Shown here: piece after piece, positions 1,387-12,214 of the stretch
Layout: each line of letters starts with the position of its first letter
Position numbering within the stretch: position 1 is the stretch's first letter
From: Methanobacteriota archaeon
GTDB lineage: Archaea; Halobacteriota; Bog-38; Methanoflorentales; Methanoflorentaceae
Assembly: GCA_963720465.1 (NCBI GenBank)
Contig: OY970393.1
Coordinates: forward strand, 1,952,001-2,016,000
Length of the DNA: 64,000 nt
Reading direction: 5' to 3'
Notes under the pieces: generated by a model
Databases searched by the model: none
What the model was told of the DNA's origin: nothing
What the model saw: the letters and a program-made list of their open reading frames with translations, nothing else
Made by a program: the position numbers and the translations under genes

Positions 1387-3918
1387 GTGTCATTAGCTCA
1401 TTATCCGGCGTTTTTTACGCCGACAGAAGAAGAGAAGCGTCTTCCCGAGCTAACTGTCTCGATAGGCATCATTGACTCGCAAGTGCGCTTCGCCTTCAAT
1501 CAGAACCGCGTTGCTGATTTGCCGCCAGCGATTCAGGCACAAGTGCGGCAGATGCTAGGTCAGTTTGAACGTGATTTTGCTACGTGGGTTTCCTTGAGTC
1601 ATAATCAGCCAGCGCGAACGCTCCCAGCGCGGGTAGTCCTTGCGACCAGTTCGCCGGCTCTCGACGTTGACACAAACAGCATAGCGTTAGCAAGCGTGGA
1701 CGACAGTGTCATTTATCTGAGCTATGCCGTGCTGCGAGAAGGCGTGCCCGTGGGTTTTCGACTCGGCGTGTTTGCGTACGTGTTTGACTGCCGTGCGCGA
1801 AATGGAAACAACAGAAACCGAGACGAACTCCTCGATGAACTCTCACTGCCGCTTCTCAAAGATCAAGTCAACGTGTTGGGGGCGCCTGAGCGCTATGCGA
1901 TGTTCGCCGACGAAGACTGGTTGGACGCATTGTCCGCGCATTTGGCGAAGAAGCTCTCGCATTTGGGCGTGCAAGCGCCCCCGCTCGCCACCTCAAAGCC
2001 CACTGCGCTTGGCAAGCGAGAAACGCTTTCGCACGAGCCCGATACTGAGCTTTCGGAAGAGCAACGTCAGCGGATAGCCGAGTTAGCCGCGAGAAATAGA
2101 ATAGACAAGGCCCTCCTCCTCAAGAAGATGCGCACGCTCGTGACCATTATCTCAACGGGACTGGGTGAGGATGTTGACATCAGCGTCGTTCCTGGCGAAT
2201 GGTGGGCTTTTGACTATGAGAGTAACACCATAACCTTCCCTCTTGTCGACCTCGTCACAGCACCGCCAGAGAAAATCATCGGCTCCTTGTTGCACGAAAT
2301 CGGCCACTACCAGGTAACGCGTGTCGACGTGAAACATCCGATCTTCATGCGTCTTCTTTCGAGCGAATCATTGCGCTTACTGCTCAACACGTTCGAAGAT
2401 CCGCGCGCAAGTAACTGGATGAAAGCCACGTTTAAAGGAACGGCCCCCTATTTTGATCTCATTTACGACGATCTGTTGTTAGAAGACCTCAGCGTGACAG
2501 CTTACAGCCACAAATTACAGAAGGAGGTGCAAAAATACGCGAATTCAACGATTCAGGCGTACCAGCTGTTCCCGCATCTCGAGTATCTGTTGTGCGTTCT
2601 GTACTTTTGGCGGTTTGGCAGGCTTCCTTCGTACGTGATAAGTCCACAAGTGAGCGCCGCTCTCGAAAGCACGGCTCAGTTTTTTCAATCAATCTTCGAC
2701 CACTATCCCCCCAGTCGCGCGACAGAGCAAGACAAGCTTCGTTACGCACTGGAAGCGGCCGGACAGATACAGAGCCATATTCTAGAGCCGTACGAGAAGC
2801 TGCTCAAGCAAGCCGCCGACAACCTTGCGCTAACTATAGAGCGCGGGCAGCAACCTCTCGGCGAAGGTGAAAACCCGTCTGAAATCAACCTGCAACCACT
2901 GGAGCAAGAAGCGCAGGAGATCCTCGACGAGCAAGCCAAGGAACTCGCCGATCGGTTGTCTGCTAAGCGAAATGTGCCCGAATCGGTTGATGCAGATGTC
3001 CTTGAACAAAAAATTGGGGAGAACAGGGATAGCCTTGAGCACGTGCGGCTCTCAGCACACAAGCCGCACTCCGAACTCACCCGAAGAGATCTTATCGCCC
3101 AGCGCCGGCACCTCGAGTTCGAACGCAGCCGCCGTATGAACGAATACCACCGGGCGTACGCTGCGGTGTCGGGATTGCTGCATATCCTCGTCGGAACGCT
3201 CGAAAATGTGCTCGCAAAGAATCGCAAGCCAAAGTACGAAGGCTACTATGCTTCTGGCCAAAAACCAGATTTGCGTCGTGTGATGGACGTTACGCGCAAG
3301 ATGCAACAGGGCTTGCCAACGACCAAGAAAGATTTCGACGTATTCCTCAAGCGTAGGCGGCCGACTCGGTTGGATCACCGGATTATGTTGCTTTTAGACG
3401 AATCAGGCTCCATGCAGGAACCAAAGCGAACTGCTGCACTGCAAGCGCTTTTACTCTTCATGGAAGCGTTCGATTATCTGGGAATCAACTACGCGATCAT
3501 CGGCTTCGCGGACGCGCCAATCATCCATAAGCCGTTTGGAGATACACTGACTCAGCGTGCTCGTGAGGATGTGTTTGAGGACGTATCTCAGTTTATTCCG
3601 CTCGGGGCAACGGCAGATGCCGACGCGCTCGCGTTAGGGATCGACCTATTCGATCGAGAGCTAGAAGATGTGTATCGCCTCATGATCGTCATATCCGACG
3701 GGGAAGGAAACGTCAACACGACTGGCATAACGTTCAAGGAACTACAAGACGTGGCGGAAACAAAAGCCATAAGCTTGATCGGCATCGGTATCGGCGAACA
3801 GGCAAAAACGATAGGCACGCGGTATGACCATCCGATACAGGTCGCTACTGTTGACGAGCTGCCGTTGACGTTGGGCCGCGTGCTGCAGCAAGAGGTGACG
3901 AGTGATTCATCCTCATAA
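1387..3918 (+). CDS. vWA (MIDAS) protein with central HEXXH zincin-like domain; midasin-tail-like C-terminus
   Basis: LLHEIGH and NTFEDPR motifs; MIDAS IMLLLDESGSM, T and VISDG. Start placed at in-frame GTG 1387 behind an AGGAG RBS (ORF track starts at TTG 1312). Confidence 0.85.
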   Translation: MSLAHYPAFFTPTEEEKRLPELTVSIGIIDSQVRFAFNQNRVADLPPAIQAQVRQMLGQFERDFATWVSLSHNQPARTLPARVVLATSSPALDVDTNSIALASVDDSVIYLSYAVLREGVPVGFRLGVFAYVFDCRARNGNNRNRDELLDELSLPLLKDQVNVLGAPERYAMFADEDWLDALSAHLAKKLSHLGVQAPPLATSKPTALGKRETLSHEPDTELSEEQRQRIAELAARNRIDKALLLKKMRTLVTIISTGLGEDVDISVVPGEWWAFDYESNTITFPLVDLVTAPPEKIIGSLLHEIGHYQVTRVDVKHPIFMRLLSSESLRLLLNTFEDPRASNWMKATFKGTAPYFDLIYDDLLLEDLSVTAYSHKLQKEVQKYANSTIQAYQLFPHLEYLLCVLYFWRFGRLPSYVISPQVSAALESTAQFFQSIFDHYPPSRATEQDKLRYALEAAGQIQSHILEPYEKLLKQAADNLALTIERGQQPLGEGENPSEINLQPLEQEAQEILDEQAKELADRLSAKRNVPESVDADVLEQKIGENRDSLEHVRLSAHKPHSELTRRDLIAQRRHLEFERSRRMNEYHRAYAAVSGLLHILVGTLENVLAKNRKPKYEGYYASGQKPDLRRVMDVTRKMQQGLPTTKKDFDVFLKRRRPTRLDHRIMLLLDESGSMQEPKRTAALQALLLFMEAFDYLGINYAIIGFADAPIIHKPFGDTLTQRAREDVFEDVSQFIPLGATADADALALGIDLFDRELEDVYRLMIVISDGEGNVNTTGITFKELQDVAETKAISLIGIGIGEQAKTIGTRYDHPIQVATVDELPLTLGRVLQQEVTSDSSS

Positions 3919-6900
3919 CTCGTCAAGACGCGACGCTCCAAGGGACAGGCGACGGCCTTCTGAAGTCACCGGCGATAGGTTCACTGCCGCGCTCGGAGCA
4001 TTAATCGCTGCCGTTTATCTCAAACTTAAGCATGACTTTCCCGACTTTTTTACAATTCGGGATTTGAAACGGGCAACTGAAGCAGTGACGCTGTTCCTGG
4101 AGTCTGGCTTAAGCGAGAAAGATGCGTTTGTTGAAGCGTGTCGCTATGGATTCATGCGGGTACGACCCGAGAATGAAAAGATCATCCGTTCAATAGTTGA
4201 AGAGCAACAAAACATCAAAGAAGTGCTAACGGATTTTGAACCGTTGGATCTCACTTCGCAAGCTCCACAGCTGCCCGCGCTGCTCACTTCTCTTTCCGAA
4301 GGCGCGAACTCTTTCGTAGAGATTCTCATCACCTTTGCTGCAAGTCCTCGCATTAAGCCGCTCTTGAGCGCGCTTTACGCGTTAGTGAGTGCATCGGACA
4401 AACAGACCCAGATCGTCGGACGCAAGATCGCATATCAAGTTCTTGTCGCTGATTTTTTGCGCGAGATTATTGTGGAGGAATTGGAAGGCGATTTAACCGA
4501 TGCAGCATGGACTGCACGCCAAGAAGCCGTCGCCGTTCTGGCCTCCGTGTACACGGAGCGCATCAGGGAGGGAAAAGCCGTCGACACGAGTCTTCTCGAG
4601 CTGTTGCTTCGCGATGAATCGTGGGCCGTACGGCAAGCGACCGCCGAAGCACTCGGCACCGTCTACGCAGCACTCATCCAACGAGGCACGGATGTCGATC
4701 TCAAAGCTCTTGAAGCGGCTCTCAGTGATCGATCCTGGGTTGTACGCAAAACAACCGCGAACGCACTCGGCACCGTCTACCCAGCGCTGATCGAACACGG
4801 GAATGCGGTTCAAATGGCCTCTCTGCAGCGCCTGCTGACTGATCACGACACAGAGGTGCGCCAAGCCGCGGTGCGGGCTTTAGGTGTGTCTTATCCAGAA
4901 CTTGTCAAACGCGGCGAGAGCGTTGACATGGACGCGCTCGAGGCCGATCTTGGAGATCGTGACGAGAAATTTCAAGTGGCGCTCATGAATACCCTCGGTC
5001 GCGTTTATGTTTCGCTGCTCGACCGAGGAGTGGTGCCCTCATTATCAAAGCTTGAGCGCGCGCTTGACAGCGAGTTCCTCGGAGTGCGTAAGATGGCAGC
5101 GCAGGTTCTGAGCGCTGTTTATCCGGCGTTCATAAAGCATGACGTGCAGATAAACTTAGCTCAAATTGAACGGGGCCTGGACGGACTGATCGATTACATT
5201 CGGCAAACGACGATAGAGGCCATCGGTATCATCTATCCGGCGCTGATTGAGGTAGGCGTAGCGATAGACGTGTCACGCTTAGAGACTGGGCTTACTGATG
5301 AATATTGGGCCGTACGGCAAGCGACCGCCGAAGCACTCGGCACCGTCTACGCAGCACTCATCCAACGAGGCACGGATGTCGATCTCAAAGCTCTTGAAGC
5401 GGCTCTCAGTGATCGATCCTGGGTTGTACGCAAAACAACCGCGAACGCACTCGGCACCGTCTACCCAGCGCTGATCGAACACGGGAATGCGGTTGACAGC
5501 ACACTGCTCGAGCGCCTTTTGTCAGACTCAAATGACCAGATGCGTCGGACTGCGGCTAGTGCGATGAGCCGCGTTTGCCTCGCCCTAACTGAGCGCGGGA
5601 CCGCCGCCGTAAACGTAGCGCCTCTAGAGCAGCTGCTTACTGATCACGACCCGGGCGTGCGTCGGACAACGATAGAAGCGCTTGGCGCGATATATCCAGC
5701 GCTGCTTCAAAGGGAAGCGGCCTTCGAGGTCAAAGAATTAGAGAAATCGATACACAGCAAACACTCAGGAGTTCGCGTGGCAGCGGCCGAAGCTCTAAGC
5801 AGGGTCTACTCAGCACTCATCGAACGCGGGACCGCCGTAAACGTAGCTCCTCTAGAGCAGCTGCTTACTGATCACGACCCGGGCGTGCGCCGGACAACGA
5901 TAGAAGCGCTCCAACGAGTCTATCCGCGACAAGTCAGTGAGGGCAGGGCCACGCCGCTGCGCGAGCTGGAGCGCGCGCTGGACGACGAGGCGGCCGATGT
6001 TCGCGCTGTCGCGCAAGACCTTTTCGCCAGCGTTGCGCGCGTAGTGTTATCGGGCCAGGAGGAAGCAGGGTTTGCGGAGGCCATTGAAAAGCTGGGGGAG
6101 GAGCTAAACGAGCCATTGTCTGCCCCACTTTCTGGTGCCTATTCGTCTTTTGTTGTGTTGGGAAAAGACTCCCTTCAGGTAGGCCGTCTGACCCTGAAGA
6201 AGAAGCAACTACGCACCAGCACACCGCCGTGCATCGTGACCAAGGCCTCGTACGAGATGCTCTACGCTATCGCTTCAGCGTATCGTCTGCACCACCCGCT
6301 CTTGCTGATGGGGCCGACGTCTACGGGGAAGAGCTTCTTGGTCAAGTGGCTAACTGAGGCGCTGGGCAACCAACACGTCTCGTACACGCTCAACCCGTAC
6401 ATTTCCAAGTCAGAACTCATAGGCGGGATAAAGCCAAACAAACGAGGCATCTTTGCCTGGCAGGATGGGATCATACTCAAGGCAGCCAAGCGCGGCATGT
6501 GCCTCGTTCTCGAAGAGCTCAACCTCGCGACCTCTGAAGTCCTTGAGATACTGAATGACTACCTGATCACCGGCAAGTTTGTCTATTCAGAGGATGGCGA
6601 TCAACGCGTTGTCGAACCATCAAACGAATTCCGGCTGTTTGCCACAGCGAACCCACTGAGTTACGCGCAAAGAGAACGGCTTTCGCAGGTGTTTGTGTCG
6701 AGATTCAAAGTGCACTATCAACCCGAGCTGAGCGAAGAAGACCTCATTGAGATTTTGAGCGGGCTATTCGACATTCCCGCTCATTTGGCGTACTCGGTGG
6801 CGTTTTTCCACACTACCCTGCAGGAACAAGCGGACTCGAAAGTCATCGGCAAGGAGGAAAAAGAGCCATACATATTCAGTTTGCGCGACTTGATACGGCT

Positions 6901-7729
6901 CGGTAGGCGATTAACGCCGGCTATACAGGCGAATGTGCCCGAACCAGAGCTTTTGCAGCTCTTCGCTAGAGAACTATCAGATATTTATGTGGCACGCGTT
7001 CGAAACGGCGACGAACGGGAAGCTCTTGTAAAGCTTGTCGACACGCTCTTTGGCCTTAAAACTAAAAGCACGACCATTGAGGACGTTCTTGCTGTCGGTA
7101 TTGAGCAGCTGGAGCAGTTCTTAGCGGACTTGTCGGTTACTCGCGGTCGCCACCTTATCCCTGGCCAAGAGGCTAACATTGTCCCGACCAAAACCCAGAG
7201 ACATACGCTCGCGAGCGTTGTCAAAGCGCTCTTTTTCAATGAGCCGATTCTTTTGGTTGGCTACCCTGCTTCAGGCAAAACGACGTTGATACGCTACCTT
7301 GCACGAGAGAAGAAAACAGACCTCTACTACGTTAACCTGTCATCAGACTCAGGTCTCGAGGAGCTCTTGGGTGGCTACACGCAAGGCCGCAGCGGCAAAT
7401 GGCACTACAAGCGAGGGCTGCTTTTTAAGGCTATTAAGAAGGGCGCGTGGCTTTTGATTGACGAGGCAAACCTCAATCCTCTCTCTGAGTATCTCAACAC
7501 GTTATTAGACTTCGGCTACGTTGCCGATGAAAAGGGGACCCTCTTTGAACTACATCCCAATTTCAGGTTGTTCTTTTCCATCAATCCTCCTAAAATTCAC
7601 CCGTCGCGAAACGTGCTCTCTCCCGCGCTGCGCACCAGGTTCAACGAGATTTGGATCGAGGAAATCACTGACCCAGAAGAACTATCAGAATTGGTCGAGA
7701 GCTGGAAGCACGCTCAATCGCCGATGTGA
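3902..7729 (+). CDS. HEAT-repeat protein with two tandem midasin/MoxR-type AAA+ domains
   Basis: 38-aa W/xVR HEAT repeats; AAA1 GPTSTGKS/LVLEELN/ATANP/SRF; AAA2 GYPASGKT/LLIDEAN/HPNFRLF/LSPALRTRF; GAGGTGA RBS; overlaps the vWA gene by 17 bp. Confidence 0.88.
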   Translation: MIHPHNSSRRDAPRDRRRPSEVTGDRFTAALGALIAAVYLKLKHDFPDFFTIRDLKRATEAVTLFLESGLSEKDAFVEACRYGFMRVRPENEKIIRSIVEEQQNIKEVLTDFEPLDLTSQAPQLPALLTSLSEGANSFVEILITFAASPRIKPLLSALYALVSASDKQTQIVGRKIAYQVLVADFLREIIVEELEGDLTDAAWTARQEAVAVLASVYTERIREGKAVDTSLLELLLRDESWAVRQATAEALGTVYAALIQRGTDVDLKALEAALSDRSWVVRKTTANALGTVYPALIEHGNAVQMASLQRLLTDHDTEVRQAAVRALGVSYPELVKRGESVDMDALEADLGDRDEKFQVALMNTLGRVYVSLLDRGVVPSLSKLERALDSEFLGVRKMAAQVLSAVYPAFIKHDVQINLAQIERGLDGLIDYIRQTTIEAIGIIYPALIEVGVAIDVSRLETGLTDEYWAVRQATAEALGTVYAALIQRGTDVDLKALEAALSDRSWVVRKTTANALGTVYPALIEHGNAVDSTLLERLLSDSNDQMRRTAASAMSRVCLALTERGTAAVNVAPLEQLLTDHDPGVRRTTIEALGAIYPALLQREAAFEVKELEKSIHSKHSGVRVAAAEALSRVYSALIERGTAVNVAPLEQLLTDHDPGVRRTTIEALQRVYPRQVSEGRATPLRELERALDDEAADVRAVAQDLFASVARVVLSGQEEAGFAEAIEKLGEELNEPLSAPLSGAYSSFVVLGKDSLQVGRLTLKKKQLRTSTPPCIVTKASYEMLYAIASAYRLHHPLLLMGPTSTGKSFLVKWLTEALGNQHVSYTLNPYISKSELIGGIKPNKRGIFAWQDGIILKAAKRGMCLVLEELNLATSEVLEILNDYLITGKFVYSEDGDQRVVEPSNEFRLFATANPLSYAQRERLSQVFVSRFKVHYQPELSEEDLIEILSGLFDIPAHLAYSVAFFHTTLQEQADSKVIGKEEKEPYIFSLRDLIRLGRRLTPAIQANVPEPELLQLFARELSDIYVARVRNGDEREALVKLVDTLFGLKTKSTTIEDVLAVGIEQLEQFLADLSVTRGRHLIPGQEANIVPTKTQRHTLASVVKALFFNEPILLVGYPASGKTTLIRYLAREKKTDLYYVNLSSDSGLEELLGGYTQGRSGKWHYKRGLLFKAIKKGAWLLIDEANLNPLSEYLNTLLDFGYVADEKGTLFELHPNFRLFFSINPPKIHPSRNVLSPALRTRFNEIWIEEITDPEELSELVESWKHAQSPM
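4622..5494 (+). repeat. 189-bp exact direct repeat (4622-4810 and 5306-5494) in the HEAT array
   Basis: Identical by eye; offset 684 bp = 6 x 114-bp (38-aa) units. Confidence 0.9.
5604..5910 (+). repeat. ~79-bp near-exact direct repeat (about 5604-5682 and 5832-5910) in the HEAT array
   Basis: Encodes AVNVAPLEQLLTDHDPGVRRTTIEAL twice; offset 228 bp = 2 units; two synonymous differences. Confidence 0.85.
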
Positions 7730-7965
7730 AACAATAGGCCCTTGGTCGGGGTTTGCCTTAATCGAACCCGTCCTAAGACTCTTGCGAGGGATCTGTTTGC
7801 GACGTGCTGGTTGGCTGATTTCTTAACGGGCTTCGGCGCCGCTGTGCTCAACCCGTCAGGCCCGAACGATGGTCGAGTGTGATTATCGCTGGGTTTATTC
7901 TACGATGCGTGCGGCCCTCCCCTAGTGCAATAACGCTTAAGTAGCCGCCCAGTCACGTTGAGGTA

Positions 7966-8523
7966 ATGACTGAAATTGCGCTCATTTGGGATCGGCCCCT
8001 TCTTTTTGAGAAGCTATTTGTGGAGTACGGTTTCGCGTGCGAGCGCGTCTCTCCATTGCAGGTCGGCAGCGCGTACTCGCCCAAGTTCGAGGTGGCAATA
8101 CTCCCTGTAGGCTTTGGGAATCCCGCTTACAGCACCGTTGCAAAATCAGTGAAAAGCCTGGGAACGCCGCTTCGCGAGTTCGTGCGAAAAGGGGGATCAC
8201 TGGTCGCGTTCAGCCCGTACGTTGACGATTACGACTTCGGGTGGCTTGGTCTTCCGTGCCGGTTCAGGCTGCTACCGCGAGATGAGCTCGTGAAAATGGC
8301 TATGAAGAGGGAACATGCGGCAACACAGATCGTTGATGTCCTTGAGGCCCACACAGATGGCTACCTGACCGGCGCGATAGAACACGACGTGATTCTAGAG
8401 ACAGAAGACGGTGCCGTTTTGACGGTGACGTCGTCAGATAATGGGCGCTTCATATTGTCGACGATTCACGAGTTTCCAGCAAGGCGATTCATCGCGTGGG
8501 CCCTCGAATCAGCGCGAGCATAG
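7966..8523 (+). CDS. Conserved archaeal hypothetical protein, class I GATase-like fold
   Basis: ILPVGFGN...FVRKGGSLVAF pattern and C-terminal STIHEFP; GAGGT RBS. Confidence 0.6.
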   Translation: MTEIALIWDRPLLFEKLFVEYGFACERVSPLQVGSAYSPKFEVAILPVGFGNPAYSTVAKSVKSLGTPLREFVRKGGSLVAFSPYVDDYDFGWLGLPCRFRLLPRDELVKMAMKREHAATQIVDVLEAHTDGYLTGAIEHDVILETEDGAVLTVTSSDNGRFILSTIHEFPARRFIAWALESARA

Positions 8524-8542: not shown

Positions 8543-9751
8543 CTAACGGCGTCGCCTGCTGGCGCGCAAGAACCCCAAACTCGCTGCCACCCCGACAGCG
8601 ACTATGACCGGCACCGCCAGCTCACTTACGACCCTCTCGCTATCAAATGTATTCATTTGATCGTTAATCACGCCGCCGTGTGCCATCTCTTGAGACATGA
8701 CTCCCTGGCTCGAGGCAGCTGACGTGCTGACCACGTGCAATGTCGAAGTATCGCGCGGGAGGGTTGCGTCTGAAGATTCGTTGATTACTACGCGCCCGGT
8801 GTCACTTGTGGCGTACGTTTGAATCAGCGTATCTGTAACGTCGCTTGAGTCCGTTCCTACGGCCACTCGCACGTGATGATCGTCAACAAAGCCCAGCGTT
8901 TGTTGTGGTTCGTAGGGCACCCATCCTATGTCAGGATAGTACACCTCGATCCAAGCGTGCGGCCCGGCGTTCCAAGTATAGCCGTACGTCGATAGGTAAC
9001 TACTTATGGTGATATCTCCGCCCACGAGGTAGCCGCTCACATAGCGCGCTGGAATTCCGACGCTCCTCAGCAGTGCCAGTGACAGCTGCGCGTAGTTCTC
9101 GCACGTTCCCCGCTTATTGTAAAATGTCCAGGCCGCGTCGTGGTTCGTCACGCTAGAATCGTATTTGAGATTGTTACGCACCCACAACATTATGGACGTC
9201 ACTGCGGCACTCTCGTAGTGAGCGTTGCTGATAAGGGTTTCCGCGGTTTTTTTGATGGCTGAATCGTTTGATTGCACGTACTTCGAAGGGGCGAGGTATT
9301 CGCTAGCGCTCTGATCAGAAGAATTGAGCCTTATCGGTAGCTGTGAATCTGAGTTCAGCCCCGCAACCTGTACATCGATGGTCAAATTGGCCGCTATCGT
9401 GTAGCTTAATCTTGGTGGCGGGTTTAGCCACGTGGCAGCAATCCCTCCGTTCGTAGCCGTTGCCTGGTCGGGTTTCGTGCTATATGAAATGCTGAATGAC
9501 AGCACTCTCTGCGAGTAGGCGAAGAGACTCGCATTCAGCGCCGTTGGAATCTGGACCACTACCTTTTGAGTTCCTTGGGGAACGATGATGTCGCGCGTTG
9601 TGGTATAGTGTACAGTGCTAGCCATGGCGCCCTGGCAAATCAGGGCGTTTCCCGATACTTGCAGTGGCGCTAAAAAAGCAATCGCAATAAGCGCGCAAGC
9701 AATGATTTTCATTTGGTGGGTACACGGCACAATAAGGGGCAGTCCGCGCAT
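8543..9751 (-). CDS. Membrane-anchored transglutaminase-like protein
   Basis: Signal peptide; RGTCENYA, GIPARYVSGY, HAWIEVY, WVPYEP motifs; C-terminal TM followed by RRRR. Confidence 0.88.
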   Translation of the reverse strand: MRGLPLIVPCTHQMKIIACALIAIAFLAPLQVSGNALICQGAMASTVHYTTTRDIIVPQGTQKVVVQIPTALNASLFAYSQRVLSFSISYSTKPDQATATNGGIAATWLNPPPRLSYTIAANLTIDVQVAGLNSDSQLPIRLNSSDQSASEYLAPSKYVQSNDSAIKKTAETLISNAHYESAAVTSIMLWVRNNLKYDSSVTNHDAAWTFYNKRGTCENYAQLSLALLRSVGIPARYVSGYLVGGDITISSYLSTYGYTWNAGPHAWIEVYYPDIGWVPYEPQQTLGFVDDHHVRVAVGTDSSDVTDTLIQTYATSDTGRVVINESSDATLPRDTSTLHVVSTSAASSQGVMSQEMAHGGVINDQMNTFDSERVVSELAVPVIVAVGVAASLGFLRASRRRR

Positions 9752-10081: not shown

Positions 10082-12214
10082 ATGACTTACAAAAAGCTTG
10101 CTGCGATCCTCCTCATCGCTTTAATAGCGCTTTCGGTGAGCGGAGCCATCATCCAGCAAAGTAGCTCCGCGGCCGCTTCCTCGATAAATGCGACAGGCGC
10201 GCTAAATACGTGGAGCCAAGCGCCGATAAATCCCGCATTCGCTCAGTATCTGAAGAATCAAGCGGCGGGAAACGCGACGACCACCGTGAGCGGGCACCAG
10301 GAAAGCCTAGTCCCGTCGACTATTAATTTCTCCACCCTTGCAGGCCAGAGTGTGCGCGCGGCGGCCGTTCCCCTCGTTGGATATCCATCGTCCTATGATC
10401 TGCGCGCGCTCGGCAAAGTCAGCCCCGTGGAGAGTCAGGGCACTGCACCTGCGTGCTGGACGTTTGCCACATACGGCTCGCTTGAGTCGTATCTACTCCC
10501 GGGAACGAAGGCAAGCTTCTCAGAGAATAACATGAAGAACTTGGCCGGATTCGATCTGACGTGCGAAGATGGAGGAAATCAGCAGATGGCGACAGCGTAC
10601 CTCGCCCGGTGGGGCGGTAGTGCGCAGAGCGGCCCGGTTACTACCGCGTGCGATCCGTTCAACCAGAATTCGTGCACCGATACGTCGTTGTGCTCCGTGC
10701 AACAGCACGTCCAAAACGTGCTCTTTCTGCCATACAGAGCTAACCCAACCGATAACAGCAACATAAAATGGGCACTGCAGAATTATGGCGGCGTTTATGC
10801 CGTCATGTGGTTCGACCCGTCCACGAGCTCGAACTATAACTCAAATACCGCGGCTTACTACTACAGTGGCAGCACCGCTCCCGATCACGCCGTGACTATC
10901 GTCGGTTGGAATGATTCCTACCCCGCCAGTAACTTCGCCAGCCGCCCGCCGGGGCCGGGCGCCTTTATCGTAAAAAACAGTTGGGGCACTTCTTTTGGAA
11001 AATCCGGTTTCTTCTACGTTTCTTACTACGACACTCAGTTCGCCACGAATTCTCAACCGCCCACGGTCTTCACTGCTGAACCAACAACGAACTACAACAC
11101 CAATTATCAATATGATTCGTTAGGGTGGGTGACTAATATCGGTAGTACTAATATCGGTAGTCTCTCCTCCAATACGGCATGGGGCGCGAACGTATTTACC
11201 GCCACGTCTAACCAGCGACTGTCCGCTGTCAGTTTCTACGCTGGTTCAGTGAATACGAATTATCAGATATACGTGTATACCAATCCGACCTCGGGTCCCA
11301 TTGGCGGCACTGCGTACACTGGCCCTAACGGCACGATCGCCACGCCCGGCTACTATACCCTCCCGCTTAATACGACCGTCCCGCTGACGGCAGGTCAGAA
11401 GTTTTCCGTTGTCATAAAGATTACCACCCCTGGAAGCAACTACCCCATCCCCGTGGAATCTACTCTACAGGGCTACAGCTCGGCAACGGGGCAACCAGGA
11501 CAGGGCTACTTGAGTGCAACTGGGAGCTCGTGGACGGATGCAACGCGGGTCAGCGCGAATATGAGTATCTGCATAAAGGCGTTTACGATGAAGCCCCAGA
11601 CCAGCGTCACCATCACCCCGTCCACCACCACCGCCACCGTCAACCAACCGGTCAATTTCACCGCCACCCTCAAGAACGGCACAGCCCCCCTCCCGTCTGA
11701 GTCCGTCACCATCTACCACTATCTCAACGGCGTCCGCTACAACGACACCACCAAGACCACCAACGCCATCGGCCAGATCACCCTCACCACGAGCTTTGGC
11801 TCCCCCGGCACACGCACCTACTACGCCACCTTCGCCGGCGACAGCTCCTATAAAGCATCGACAAGCAGCGTCGTCACCGTCAACGTCACCGCCCGGACCA
11901 ATGTCACTCTCGCTGCGTCTCCCACCACCCCCGCCGTGAATCAGTCCGTCACCTTCACCGCAACGCTCTCGTGGTGGAACCCCGCAACCGGCAAATGGAT
12001 CGTCGTCGCGACGAGCGGCAAGCCGATACAGATCTGGCACACCCTCAACGGCATCCGCTACAACGACACAACGACATACACCAACGCGAGCGGCACGGCT
12101 ACGTTCACACAGAAGTTTGCGTCAGCCGGCACACGCACCTACTACGCCACCTTCGCCGGCGACACATGGTATAATGTGTCGACGAGCGCGGTCGTGACGA
12201 TAAGCGTGCATTAG
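10082..12214 (+). CDS. Secreted papain-family (C1A) cysteine peptidase with lectin-like domain and two C-terminal Ig-like repeats
   Basis: QG..ACWTFA, HAVTIVGW and KNSWG catalytic motifs; NYQYD..GW lectin-like start; two GTRTYYATFAGD repeats. Confidence 0.92.
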   Translation: MTYKKLAAILLIALIALSVSGAIIQQSSSAAASSINATGALNTWSQAPINPAFAQYLKNQAAGNATTTVSGHQESLVPSTINFSTLAGQSVRAAAVPLVGYPSSYDLRALGKVSPVESQGTAPACWTFATYGSLESYLLPGTKASFSENNMKNLAGFDLTCEDGGNQQMATAYLARWGGSAQSGPVTTACDPFNQNSCTDTSLCSVQQHVQNVLFLPYRANPTDNSNIKWALQNYGGVYAVMWFDPSTSSNYNSNTAAYYYSGSTAPDHAVTIVGWNDSYPASNFASRPPGPGAFIVKNSWGTSFGKSGFFYVSYYDTQFATNSQPPTVFTAEPTTNYNTNYQYDSLGWVTNIGSTNIGSLSSNTAWGANVFTATSNQRLSAVSFYAGSVNTNYQIYVYTNPTSGPIGGTAYTGPNGTIATPGYYTLPLNTTVPLTAGQKFSVVIKITTPGSNYPIPVESTLQGYSSATGQPGQGYLSATGSSWTDATRVSANMSICIKAFTMKPQTSVTITPSTTTATVNQPVNFTATLKNGTAPLPSESVTIYHYLNGVRYNDTTKTTNAIGQITLTTSFGSPGTRTYYATFAGDSSYKASTSSVVTVNVTARTNVTLAASPTTPAVNQSVTFTATLSWWNPATGKWIVVATSGKPIQIWHTLNGIRYNDTTTYTNASGTATFTQKFASAGTRTYYATFAGDTWYNVSTSAVVTISVH
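11132..11161 (+). repeat. 15-bp in-frame tandem duplication (TNIGS x2)
   Basis: ACTAATATCGGTAGT repeated twice. Confidence 0.85.
11805..12164 (+). repeat. 39-bp exact repeat (11805-11843 and 12126-12164) between the Ig-like domains
   Basis: CCGGCACACGCACCTACTACGCCACCTTCGCCGGCGACA occurs twice. Confidence 0.85.

Follow-up and report, generated by a model that had tools for sequence, protein, structure and literature searches.

According to the available text of one account, dynein and midasin are the sole proteins that have six AAA+ domains in a single chain (PMC4047620). The closest prokaryotic homologue of their AAA domains is held to be MoxR in the accessible part of another account (PMC3495828), which also discusses the linkage of MoxR with von Willebrand factor A (vWA) and transglutaminase-like (TGL) proteins. 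As far as the obtainable portions of the literature go, midasin and dynein are derived from single-domain MoxR, and in one paper the MoxR-like ATPases are termed 'strictly prokaryotic' (PMC3495828, PMC4047620, PMC13036017). Here we describe a pair of genes, designated A and B, at positions 1387-7729 of a 64,000-nucleotide stretch from the genome of a methanogenic archaeon of the Methanoflorentaceae (contig OY970393.1, positions 1,952,001 to 2,016,000 of the forward strand; hereafter the window). Gene A encodes a protein with a vWA domain that bears a MIDAS (an adhesion site dependent on a metal ion), and gene B encodes one with a repeat arm and two tandem AAA domains. The best explanation of this locus, to which we give roughly an even chance, is that it represents a minimal and split, 'one-third' form of a prokaryotic AAA+/MIDAS machine of the midasin lineage, with a housekeeping role in extraction or proteostasis.

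The two genes are open reading frames (ORFs) on the same strand, with A (HExxH and vWA domains) preceding B (HEAT repeats and AAA domains); their overlap, which had been noticed in an initial annotation made from the letters of the DNA alone, measures 17 nucleotides. Gene A (1387..3918, + strand) encodes 843 residues from a GTG at 1387, with its stop codon at 3916-3918; its reading frame is already open at a TTG at 1312, and the GTG is the likely start because the homologues of A are 833-847 residues long. Gene B (3902..7729, + strand), in the +1 frame relative to A, encodes 1275 residues from a GTG at 3902. The overlap suggests translational coupling, by which the production of A would keep pace with that of B. 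That the genes appear split through a sequencing error was rejected, since many independent assemblies from the same genus encode separate proteins of ~840 and ~1272 residues. All the motif strings quoted in the initial annotation were recovered in the translations of A and B. Its placement of the locus in an archaeon agrees with the host genome, a single contig of 2.31 Mb that encodes McrA (E 1.7e-68), and with the names of archaeal metagenome-assembled genomes (MAGs) borne by close relatives. In the databases, these proteins are annotated as 'MoxR-like ATPase/HEAT repeat protein/Mg-chelatase subunit ChlD' or as 'PDS5'.

Gene B encodes one unit comprised of a lid-like domain, a repeat arm, a first AAA domain (AAA-a), a lid and a second AAA domain (AAA-b). 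The AAA-a core (6269..6733, +; residues 790-944) displays a Walker A motif of the form GPTSTGKS and a Walker B motif LVLEE followed by LNLA, and the AAA-b core (7220..7669, +; residues 1107-1256) displays GYPASGKTT and LLIDE followed by ANLN. Both are recovered by the AAA_5 model (PF07728, E 2.1e-37) in two stretches, at 799-935 and about 1116-1250. Between them lies a lid of the midasin type (6740..7057, +), which matches the 'Midasin AAA lid' family PF17867 over 105/106 profile positions (residues 947-1052, E 4.1e-14). Among solved structures, the best matches of B were the midasins of S. pombe (6or5_A, E 2.2e-109) and yeast (Rea1, 6hyp_A, 7.2e-107), in single stretches of 96-120 bits running colinearly through AAA-a, the lid and AAA-b; the next were CbbQ (4.4e-8), NorQ (5.7e-6) and CobS (1.4e-5). 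The similarity to midasin thus greatly exceeds what chance would give. The MoxR AAA_3 family (PF07726) was not among the listed matches of B, and the bpMoxR profile (PF20030) reached 25.2 bits, below its cut-off of 27. On the profiles for GvpN (TIGR02640) and CobS (TIGR01650), B scored 33 and 33.6 bits against cut-offs of 266.8 and 558.55, and CbbQ_C (PF08406) was undetected in the host genome.

When 1.84 billion representatives were searched exhaustively by HMMER with the AAA module as query, 4850 matches reached E<=1e-3, and 782 reached E<=1e-30. The ranking was headed by the family to which the locus itself belongs, followed by a set of giant proteins (P0147, P0149-P0151, P0153, P0154), and then by eukaryotic midasins, including those of Manduca, Trichogramma, Saitoella and S. 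pombe, with scores of ~400 bits and identities of 29-33%. The picture was the same when longer proteins were searched by a word index, with 279 matches at E<=1e-40; among the 120 matches listed, 3 appear prokaryotic, and the named remainder are nearly all eukaryotic, with many labelled midasin. The prokaryotic giants, which do not figure in the initial annotation, are closer kin of the locus than eukaryotic midasin, and this changes the evolutionary reading of the locus.

Several signature features of the AAA_5 cores point in the same direction. The residues NLA after the Walker B motif are shared by AAA-a of the family, most domains of the giants and most midasin domains; this signature was not seen in AAA-b (ANLN) or in the CbbQ, GvpN and MoxR sequences compared. 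As in midasin, where odd domains have GP.. and even ones GETG.., the Walker A types alternate in the giants, with GPT in a-type and GET in b-type domains of P0147 and a GET/GPT alternation in P0150, P0151 and P0153. In the giants, the lid hidden Markov model (HMM) finds its matches after a-type or odd domains; in the midasins, it finds them after AAA1, AAA3 and AAA5. On a domain HMM, the cores of the family scored 166-181 bits and those of MoxR 42-46. Taken with the structural matches and the PF17867 lid, the NLA signature bears out the early suggestion that the AAA pair is nearer to midasin than to single-domain MoxR. The pair is much nearer to midasin than to any of the single-AAA proteins MoxR, CbbQ, NorQ and CobS.

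A further affinity to midasin is seen in the C-terminal part of gene A, where a pre-MIDAS segment and the vWA domain occupy 3187..3915 (+), with the DxSxS motif present as DESGS at residues 696-700 (3397-3411; residues of A domains are numbered as in P0001). The domain matches VWA PF00092 (E 1.5e-9), and its MIDAS motif is complete. In comparisons that each took in ~75 residues N-terminal to DxSxS, residues 626-860 of P0001 aligned with 4448-4709 of S. pombe Mdn1 (E 8e-10), and a profile of eight A modules retrieved the MIDAS domain of midasin (6qt8_A, 9.5e-9) as its top match in the PDB, with CobT (21vt_A, 1.8e-8) next and integrin I domains far lower (~1e-3). A comparison by hhalign with five midasin tails gave a probability of 98.3% (E 1.2e-14, 245 columns), the match beginning ~75 residues upstream of DxSxS. 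The likeness of this lead-in to the pre-MIDAS segment of midasin, remarked upon at the outset, is thereby upheld, the common pattern being G.Y/F..G.+.... and then R+.P.+R..+I...D.S.SM. Considered with its lead-in, the vWA domain of A is closest to the MIDAS domain of midasin and to CobT.

The relationship to CobT also speaks for a rival explanation, in which the locus would specify a metal-cofactor insertion or activase chaperone like NorQ-NorD, CbbQ-CbbO, CobS-CobT and CoxD-CoxE. Here the ring would twist the vWA protein to open a particular metallo-enzyme found in anaerobes, and the HExxH site of A would bind or deliver a metal instead of cutting protein. CobT_C (PF11775) matches 8/8 A modules, with a best E of 1.8e-8 and the window protein covering only profile positions 1-57 of 220, and CbbQ and NorQ are the next-best AAA matches after midasin and stand near the family in one tree. 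The NorQ-NorD, CbbQ-CbbO and CobS-CobT systems couple an AAA_5 core to a separately encoded vWA partner made up of an N-domain, a linker and a vWA domain, a layout that the locus appears to share; the parallel is with NorD as presented in the accessible text (PMC13036017), by analogy with which the vWA domain of A would probably dock on the ring. In the Atlas search, the features of the HExxH part resembled those of small viral proteins, 15% with CobT PF06213, which we treat as a lead only. The hosts, moreover, are anaerobes that are probably rich in metallo-enzymes. The CobT N-domain (PF06213) itself was undetected in the A modules, and the CobT chain 9uka_G of the PDB was matched in the vWA part only. 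Against this explanation, no client enzyme gene is conserved alongside the locus in any clade, whereas the clients of NorQ, CbbQ and CobS are encoded nearby, and the window ORFs inspected included no chelatase partner, CobN-like or otherwise. Such chaperones are not known to combine tandem AAA domains, a lid of the midasin type and an extended HEAT arm; they have a single AAA per chain, form homo-hexamers and are devoid of PF17867, a HEAT arm and HExxH. Further, the combination of HExxH with an E-D motif, as found in A, is typical of peptidases. All told, we view a metal chaperone, and with it a metal-delivering HExxH site, as unlikely.

The architecture of the giants bears on how a chain with two AAA domains might build a ring. 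P0147 (4471 residues) possesses six AAA_5 domains in three a-b pairs, which sit in three tandem units of ~1150-1200 residues that are mutually 61-66% identical, with arms of TPR repeats between the pairs. Past the third pair, it is colinear with residues 270-867 of A (P0001; E 2e-69), through the HExxH domain, linker and vWA domain. To judge from this alignment, P0147 amounts to gene B three times over and gene A once, joined in the midasin order of ring, tail and MIDAS. In P0151 (4005 residues, listed by NCBI as 'Thermoproteota archaeon'), HExxH...vWA likewise comes after six AAA domains, and in these one-chain six-AAA relatives the HExxH, linker and MIDAS vWA module that constitutes gene A lies C-terminal to the ring. 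Six AAA domains were counted in the relatives P0147, P0150, P0151, P0154 and P0294 only; B has two. The Omnitrophota proteins P0168 and P0294 belong with the giants, which as a whole (P0147, P0149-P0151, P0153, P0154, P0168, P0294, P0299, P0300) span 2800-7600 residues and have 4-6 midasin-like AAA domains; several end in a HExxH-vWA tail, and those with a named source are from Thermoproteota and Omnitrophota. The giants share with the locus the a and b types of AAA domain, the lid and the HExxH-linker-MIDAS module, and differ in having six AAA domains and the MIDAS in one chain, TPR rather than HEAT arms in P0147, and a separate lid for each b-type domain. Elsewhere in the same phylum, an open frame of 3262 residues (G001:C1:212881-219522) with several weak matches of the GvpN/AAA_5 type may be another multi-AAA protein; it gave no match to the window AAA module at E<=1e-20.

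The association of the two genes is a recurrent one. Among 185,579 species genomes, a pattern scan picked out 44 loci, of which 34 have the A module adjoining B, as fused A-B genes in 21 cases, split pairs in 12 and a B-A fusion in one; in the other 10, a contig end falls inside gene B. The pairing seen in the window thus extends to all 34 informative loci, often as a fusion. The fused A-B ORFs are ~1800-1870 residues long. In the B-A fusion, a Planctomycetales protein of 2165 residues (L043), the A module lies downstream of the AAA pair, which is the ring-to-tail-to-MIDAS order common to midasin, P0147 and P0151. Given that P0147 consists of three B-like units and one A-like module, three B chains would be expected to form one six-module ring, for which P0147 is the strongest evidence at hand. 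The original proposal that three two-AAA chains make up a ring is in this way supported indirectly, through the layout of P0147; its ratio of three B to one A is not supported, and the overlapping genes, their probable coupling and the 1:1 fusions in 22 loci favor equal amounts (3:3).

For a phylogenetic analysis, 104 AAA cores were cut with a purpose-built HMM from family members, giants and five midasins, as well as from the CbbQ, GvpN and MoxR proteins of related genomes, and two quick trees were made from a 155-column core, one with 104 rows and one with 101 rows after dropping three long-branch rows. AAA-a and AAA-b each formed a family clade with a support of 99-100 in both trees, and the indication that they are old and distinct paralogues is robust. 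AAA-b clustered with the even domains of P0147 and P0149 (support 93 with 104 rows, 97 with 101), and AAA-a with the odd domains of these proteins at an SH-aLRT of 99 with 104 rows, this fork being open with 101 rows. These trees also bear on secondary acquisition, by which a piece of eukaryotic midasin would have moved to prokaryotes and been trimmed, in which case the locus would be uninformative on the origin of midasin. An identity to midasin of 26-33%, above that to any single-AAA prokaryotic family, and a sparse prokaryotic distribution speak for such a transfer. However, neither AAA-a nor AAA-b nests within any single eukaryotic AAA1-6 clade, and in both trees AAA2, AAA4 and AAA6 of the eukaryotes are united in a clade (support 94 and 92) that stands beside the prokaryotic a and b clades. 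Likewise, the prokaryotic forms have a HExxH domain that is absent from midasin, and they occur in both Archaea and Bacteria with several architectures. We hold a eukaryotic source to be very improbable.

The HExxH domain of A, a putative Zn-metallopeptidase (2104..2751, +), has the motif HEIGH at residues 328-332 (2293-2307), and also carries an E-D motif (FEDPR; FEDxR..W) and a P-H-x-E motif (PHLEY). The H, E, H, E, D, H and E of these three motifs are invariant in 8/8 A modules, archaeal and bacterial, and the HExxH motif is conserved in the giants P0147 and P0151. We read the domain as probably a zinc peptidase, or else at least a zinc site. It had a Pfam match in 0/8 A modules, its NCBIfam and PADLOC searches were empty, a PDB profile search found no match for this part among solved structures, and a PHROGs search gave a weak 'peptidase' match (0.031) for 1 of 3 sequences. 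The linker that follows (2752..3186, +; residues 481-625) is a helical, mildly acidic segment of 145 residues with a D+E content of 18.6%, rising to 22%, with a net charge of -10, in its core (residues 500-585), and it aligns with the linkers of P0147 and P0151. The HExxH domain, helical and acidic linker and intact MIDAS vWA domain first described for A are accordingly all present, the acidity of the linker being mild. A peptidase remnant inside the midasin linker was considered and dropped, as the HExxH and linker profiles found none in five midasin tails. The N-terminal domain of A (1387..2001, +; ~205 residues) is confined to the window's archaeal clade, with tblastn matches to L001-L003, L005, L006, L012 and L025 only. 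It has no family match in Pfam, NCBIfam or PADLOC, and its scores in the Atlas search (<=0.81) were at chance level.

The repeat arm of B is a HEAT array (4478..6112, +; residues 193-737) of ~14 repeats with a 38-residue period, of which 10 strict-motif repeats are in register at that period. The matches to HEAT PF02985 (E 8.4e-44) and PF13646 (E 7.5e-37), together with the period and the two PF07728 stretches, corroborate the initial description of B as ~14 HEAT repeats plus two tandem AAA domains. At the DNA level, the array contains two internal and recent duplications, one of 237 nucleotides with 92% identity (4606-4842 and 5290-5526; spacing 684 nucleotides, or 6 repeats) and one of 79 nucleotides with 97% identity (5604-5682 and 5832-5910; spacing 228 nucleotides, or 2 repeats). 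The length of the arm seems quick to change, because relatives of B whose AAA parts share 90% identity or more range from 1137 to 1275 residues.

The distribution of the module is patchy. Within the host archaeal family, it is found in 20/24 genomes, including 5/5 of high quality, as a split form in the window's genus and a fused form (1875-1884 residues) in the sister genus, and it was not found in 177 genomes of 25 other families in the phylum sample. Further holders include Syntrophales, Desulfofervidaceae, Planctomycetes, Omnitrophota and others, mostly MAGs from peat, fen and sediment. To judge from this pattern, the module may have passed horizontally between anaerobes that live together and then have been inherited stably. 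The scattered occurrence and the changing HEAT arm, with its recent duplications and variable length, would also fit a conflict or defence system, made up of an NTPase, a vWA protein and an effector peptidase, that has spread horizontally and whose fast-evolving arm senses invader proteins, and conflict systems of the MoxR-vWA ternary type have been described, as far as the available text goes (PMC7159879). Yet A was unmatched in PADLOC and B drew only HEAT/P-loop matches of a generic kind there, searches of 72,556 plasmids and 50,697 phage records returned zero matches at E<=1e-10, no defence genes were noticed among the neighbours, and the position in the archaeal family is stable and syntenic. 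A role in conflict therefore strikes us as distinctly improbable. As side observations, the archaeal genus with the fused form has a separate HEAT-only protein of 492 residues encoded ~5 kb upstream of the fused gene (L011:1609-3087, L027:1713-3191). In addition, orthologues of gene B with one in-frame TGA were seen in three related genomes, at G048:C13:10789-12387, G154:C119:3998-4933 and G152:C188:2185-3060, where the TGA could mean that the gene is broken, that the assembly is wrong or that the codon is recoded.

A comparison of gene neighbourhoods found no third gene common to the loci across clades. A conserved third partner was accordingly rejected: a gene for a 255-residue protein is confined to the Syntrophales-type loci, and the orf185, TGL and Hsp20 genes to the window's archaeal clade. 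The Hsp20/alpha-crystallin gene (439-993, +; PF00011, E 1.8e-17) lies 393 nucleotides upstream of A, a position kept in 8 archaeal loci (L001-L003, L005, L006, L012, L025 and the window). A housekeeping role in disassembly or proteostasis is favored because the locus is kept vertically beside the Hsp20 gene in the archaeal family. Downstream of B, orf185 (7966-8523, +; 185 residues) is kept in 14 loci and belongs to no family in Pfam, NCBIfam or PADLOC searches. In the spacer that separates B from orf185, a contig from one peat RNA-library run (X1) has 178 different letters in place of 184 nucleotides past the B stop (7731-7916), which is strain variation. Next come a gene for a transglutaminase-like membrane protein (8543-9751, -; PF01841, E 5.7e-28), kept in 15 loci, and one for a secreted protease of the papain family with lectin-like and Ig-like domains (10082-12214, +). 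In 15 bacterial Syntrophales-type loci (e.g. L016:13611-14393), the gene for the 255-residue protein lies directly 3' of the fused gene, followed in 10 of the 15 by a gene for a small P-loop protein; both are probably a matter of lineage synteny.

The transglutaminase-like gene two genes downstream in the archaeal clade recalls the MoxR-vWA-TGL (YebA-like) and ternary systems, for which, in the accessible parts of two accounts, a logic of ATPase, vWA co-chaperone and peptidase is likewise proposed (PMC3495828, PMC7159879). The locus differs from these systems in that the ATPase is not MoxR proper, the putative peptidase is a HExxH domain fused to the vWA protein, and the TGL gene is on the opposite strand and conserved in one clade only.

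Ring-forming AAA+ ATPases have the lid of a module packed against the following module's large subdomain. AAA-b lacks a lid of its own, as B terminates 19 residues past the AAA-b core. The conserved N-terminal helical domain of B (3959..4306, +; residues 20-135) is weakly lid-like, and its sequence FTIRDLKRA echoes FSLRDLIRL of the internal lid; a profile-profile comparison of the domain with this lid gave P 0.001. Such comparisons are each weak on their own, but they agree with one another. When aligned by hhalign with the lids that follow even or b-type domains, it gave P values of 8e-4 (P0151), 8e-4, 0.005 and 0.014 (midasin, after AAA2, AAA4 and AAA6), 0.028 (P0149) and 0.14 (P0147). A complex prediction for residues 20-135 of B with 740-1275 scored 0.61, the best of 3 controls scoring 0.00; the score mark was met by 58/80 solved complexes and 2/110 mismatched pairs, counts that are only rough here, where our own alignment was used. 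The contact agreement across runs was at least 71% and the partner pLDDT at least 75, and the predicted interface falls on AAA-a, at residues 747-798 and 929-941 of its large subdomain; this prediction says nothing on the binding of A to B. In the available text on dynein, a lid-like bundle is placed right before AAA1 (PMC4047620). We infer that the N-terminal domain of B may be a displaced lid of AAA-b, with the ring closed by lid swapping.

These elements may be combined into a tentative mechanism for a machine of the midasin lineage. Three B chains would assemble an (a-b)3 hexameric ring, with the lid-like N-terminal domain of each packing on its own AAA-a and completing the lid-less AAA-b of the neighbouring chain. 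Protein A, produced in step with B, would dock its vWA domain on the ring, by analogy with midasin and NorQD, and the MIDAS ion might then grip an acidic residue of whichever target protein the HEAT arms hold. ATP hydrolysis would pull via the linker, so that the target is extracted or remodelled, and the conserved HExxH domain would cut or hold the extracted target.

A number of observations weigh against this interpretation. The trees made from the cores alone are unstable: the 104-row tree leaves CbbQ and GvpN outside the midasin-like set, and the 101-row tree puts them inside a polytomy with the family, at a support of 85. In an approximately unbiased (AU) test, constraining the 13 single-AAA rows to one side was not rejected (p-AU 0.605, with a log-likelihood better by 3.93), an outcome that is no proof of a separate single-AAA side. 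The core tree alone gave no reliable separation of the family from CbbQ/GvpN. As the placement of these proteins differs between the trees, the 155-column core is unable to carry the claim of midasin kinship, and this claim therefore rests on the colinear similarity through AAA-a, lid and AAA-b, the lid itself, the MIDAS module and the signature motifs. With 137-147 bits, the scores of CbbQ cores on the domain HMM are level with those of some midasin domains, and the Walker B motif of AAA-a has E-E and not D-E. Among the giants, P0149 (7137 residues) has just two a-b pairs. The HExxH and linker profiles had no counterpart in the five midasin tails (E 0.8 and 0.49). The identification of the N-terminal domain of B as a lid has a top hhalign probability of 24%, and the complex prediction placed this domain on AAA-a, not on AAA-b; it also paired two parts of one chain, and may echo the midasin and dynein structures in the model. 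Gene neighbours vary between clades, and none names a substrate. On the supporting side, contigs from peat RNA libraries, which are no proof of transcription, cover parts of A and B at 93-99% identity in 4/4 runs, with one contig of 984 nucleotides crossing the A-B junction; the uncovered stretches (e.g. 1201-2100) are uninformative, and the cover is compatible with expression of both genes. Finally, the ring, the trimer and the lid swap are each reached by inference.

The locus further resembles midasin in having an acidic stretch N-terminal to the MIDAS domain, and departs from it on several counts. Midasin has six AAA domains per chain and the locus two, with the MIDAS module as a separate upstream gene; the linker is just 145 residues with 19% D+E, in place of the large D/E-rich region that midasin has between ring and MIDAS, and neither the ~1700-residue linker of the midasin type nor the H2 inserts of b-type domains were found. 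Conversely, the locus has a HEAT arm, and a HExxH domain that was not found in midasin tails. Its substrates must differ from those of midasin, because the host is a methanogen without a nucleus. A classification by Iyer and colleagues from 2004 reportedly recognized a dynein/midasin clade. In the literature searched, we found no description of prokaryotic midasin-like proteins, with a passing mention possible in Iyer et al. 2004 or Garbarino & Gibbons 2002, and none of the six-AAA prokaryotic giants. This accords with the initial judgment that the system is undescribed.

An AAA+ ATPase with a vWA partner is in itself a known kind of system; the form described here bears strongly on the origin of midasin, since the locus and its relatives are prokaryotic proteins much nearer to midasin than MoxR is. 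They present a graded set of architectures, with two AAA domains and a separate MIDAS protein, two AAA domains fused to the MIDAS module in either order, and six AAA domains and the MIDAS in one chain. As a tentative scenario, which we rate as possible and somewhat short of an even chance, midasin may descend from a prokaryotic ring protein of the (AAA-a/AAA-b) x 3 type with a HExxH-linker-MIDAS tail. The form in the window would then be a living 'one-third' protomer, whose N-terminal lid is donated to the lid-less AAA-b of its neighbour and so closes the ring. Six-AAA chains would have arisen on more than one occasion through tandem triplication of just this unit, as P0147 illustrates, and eukaryotes would have lost the peptidase and expanded the linker. 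The origin of both the six-domain ring and the MIDAS tail thereby becomes open to tests on proteins that are small and can be expressed, of 1275 and 843 residues. The locus also defines a HExxH domain that is uncharacterised and strictly conserved, in combination with a MIDAS hook. This suggests that methanogens and their syntrophic partners have a machine that extracts and cuts its targets, driven by ATP.

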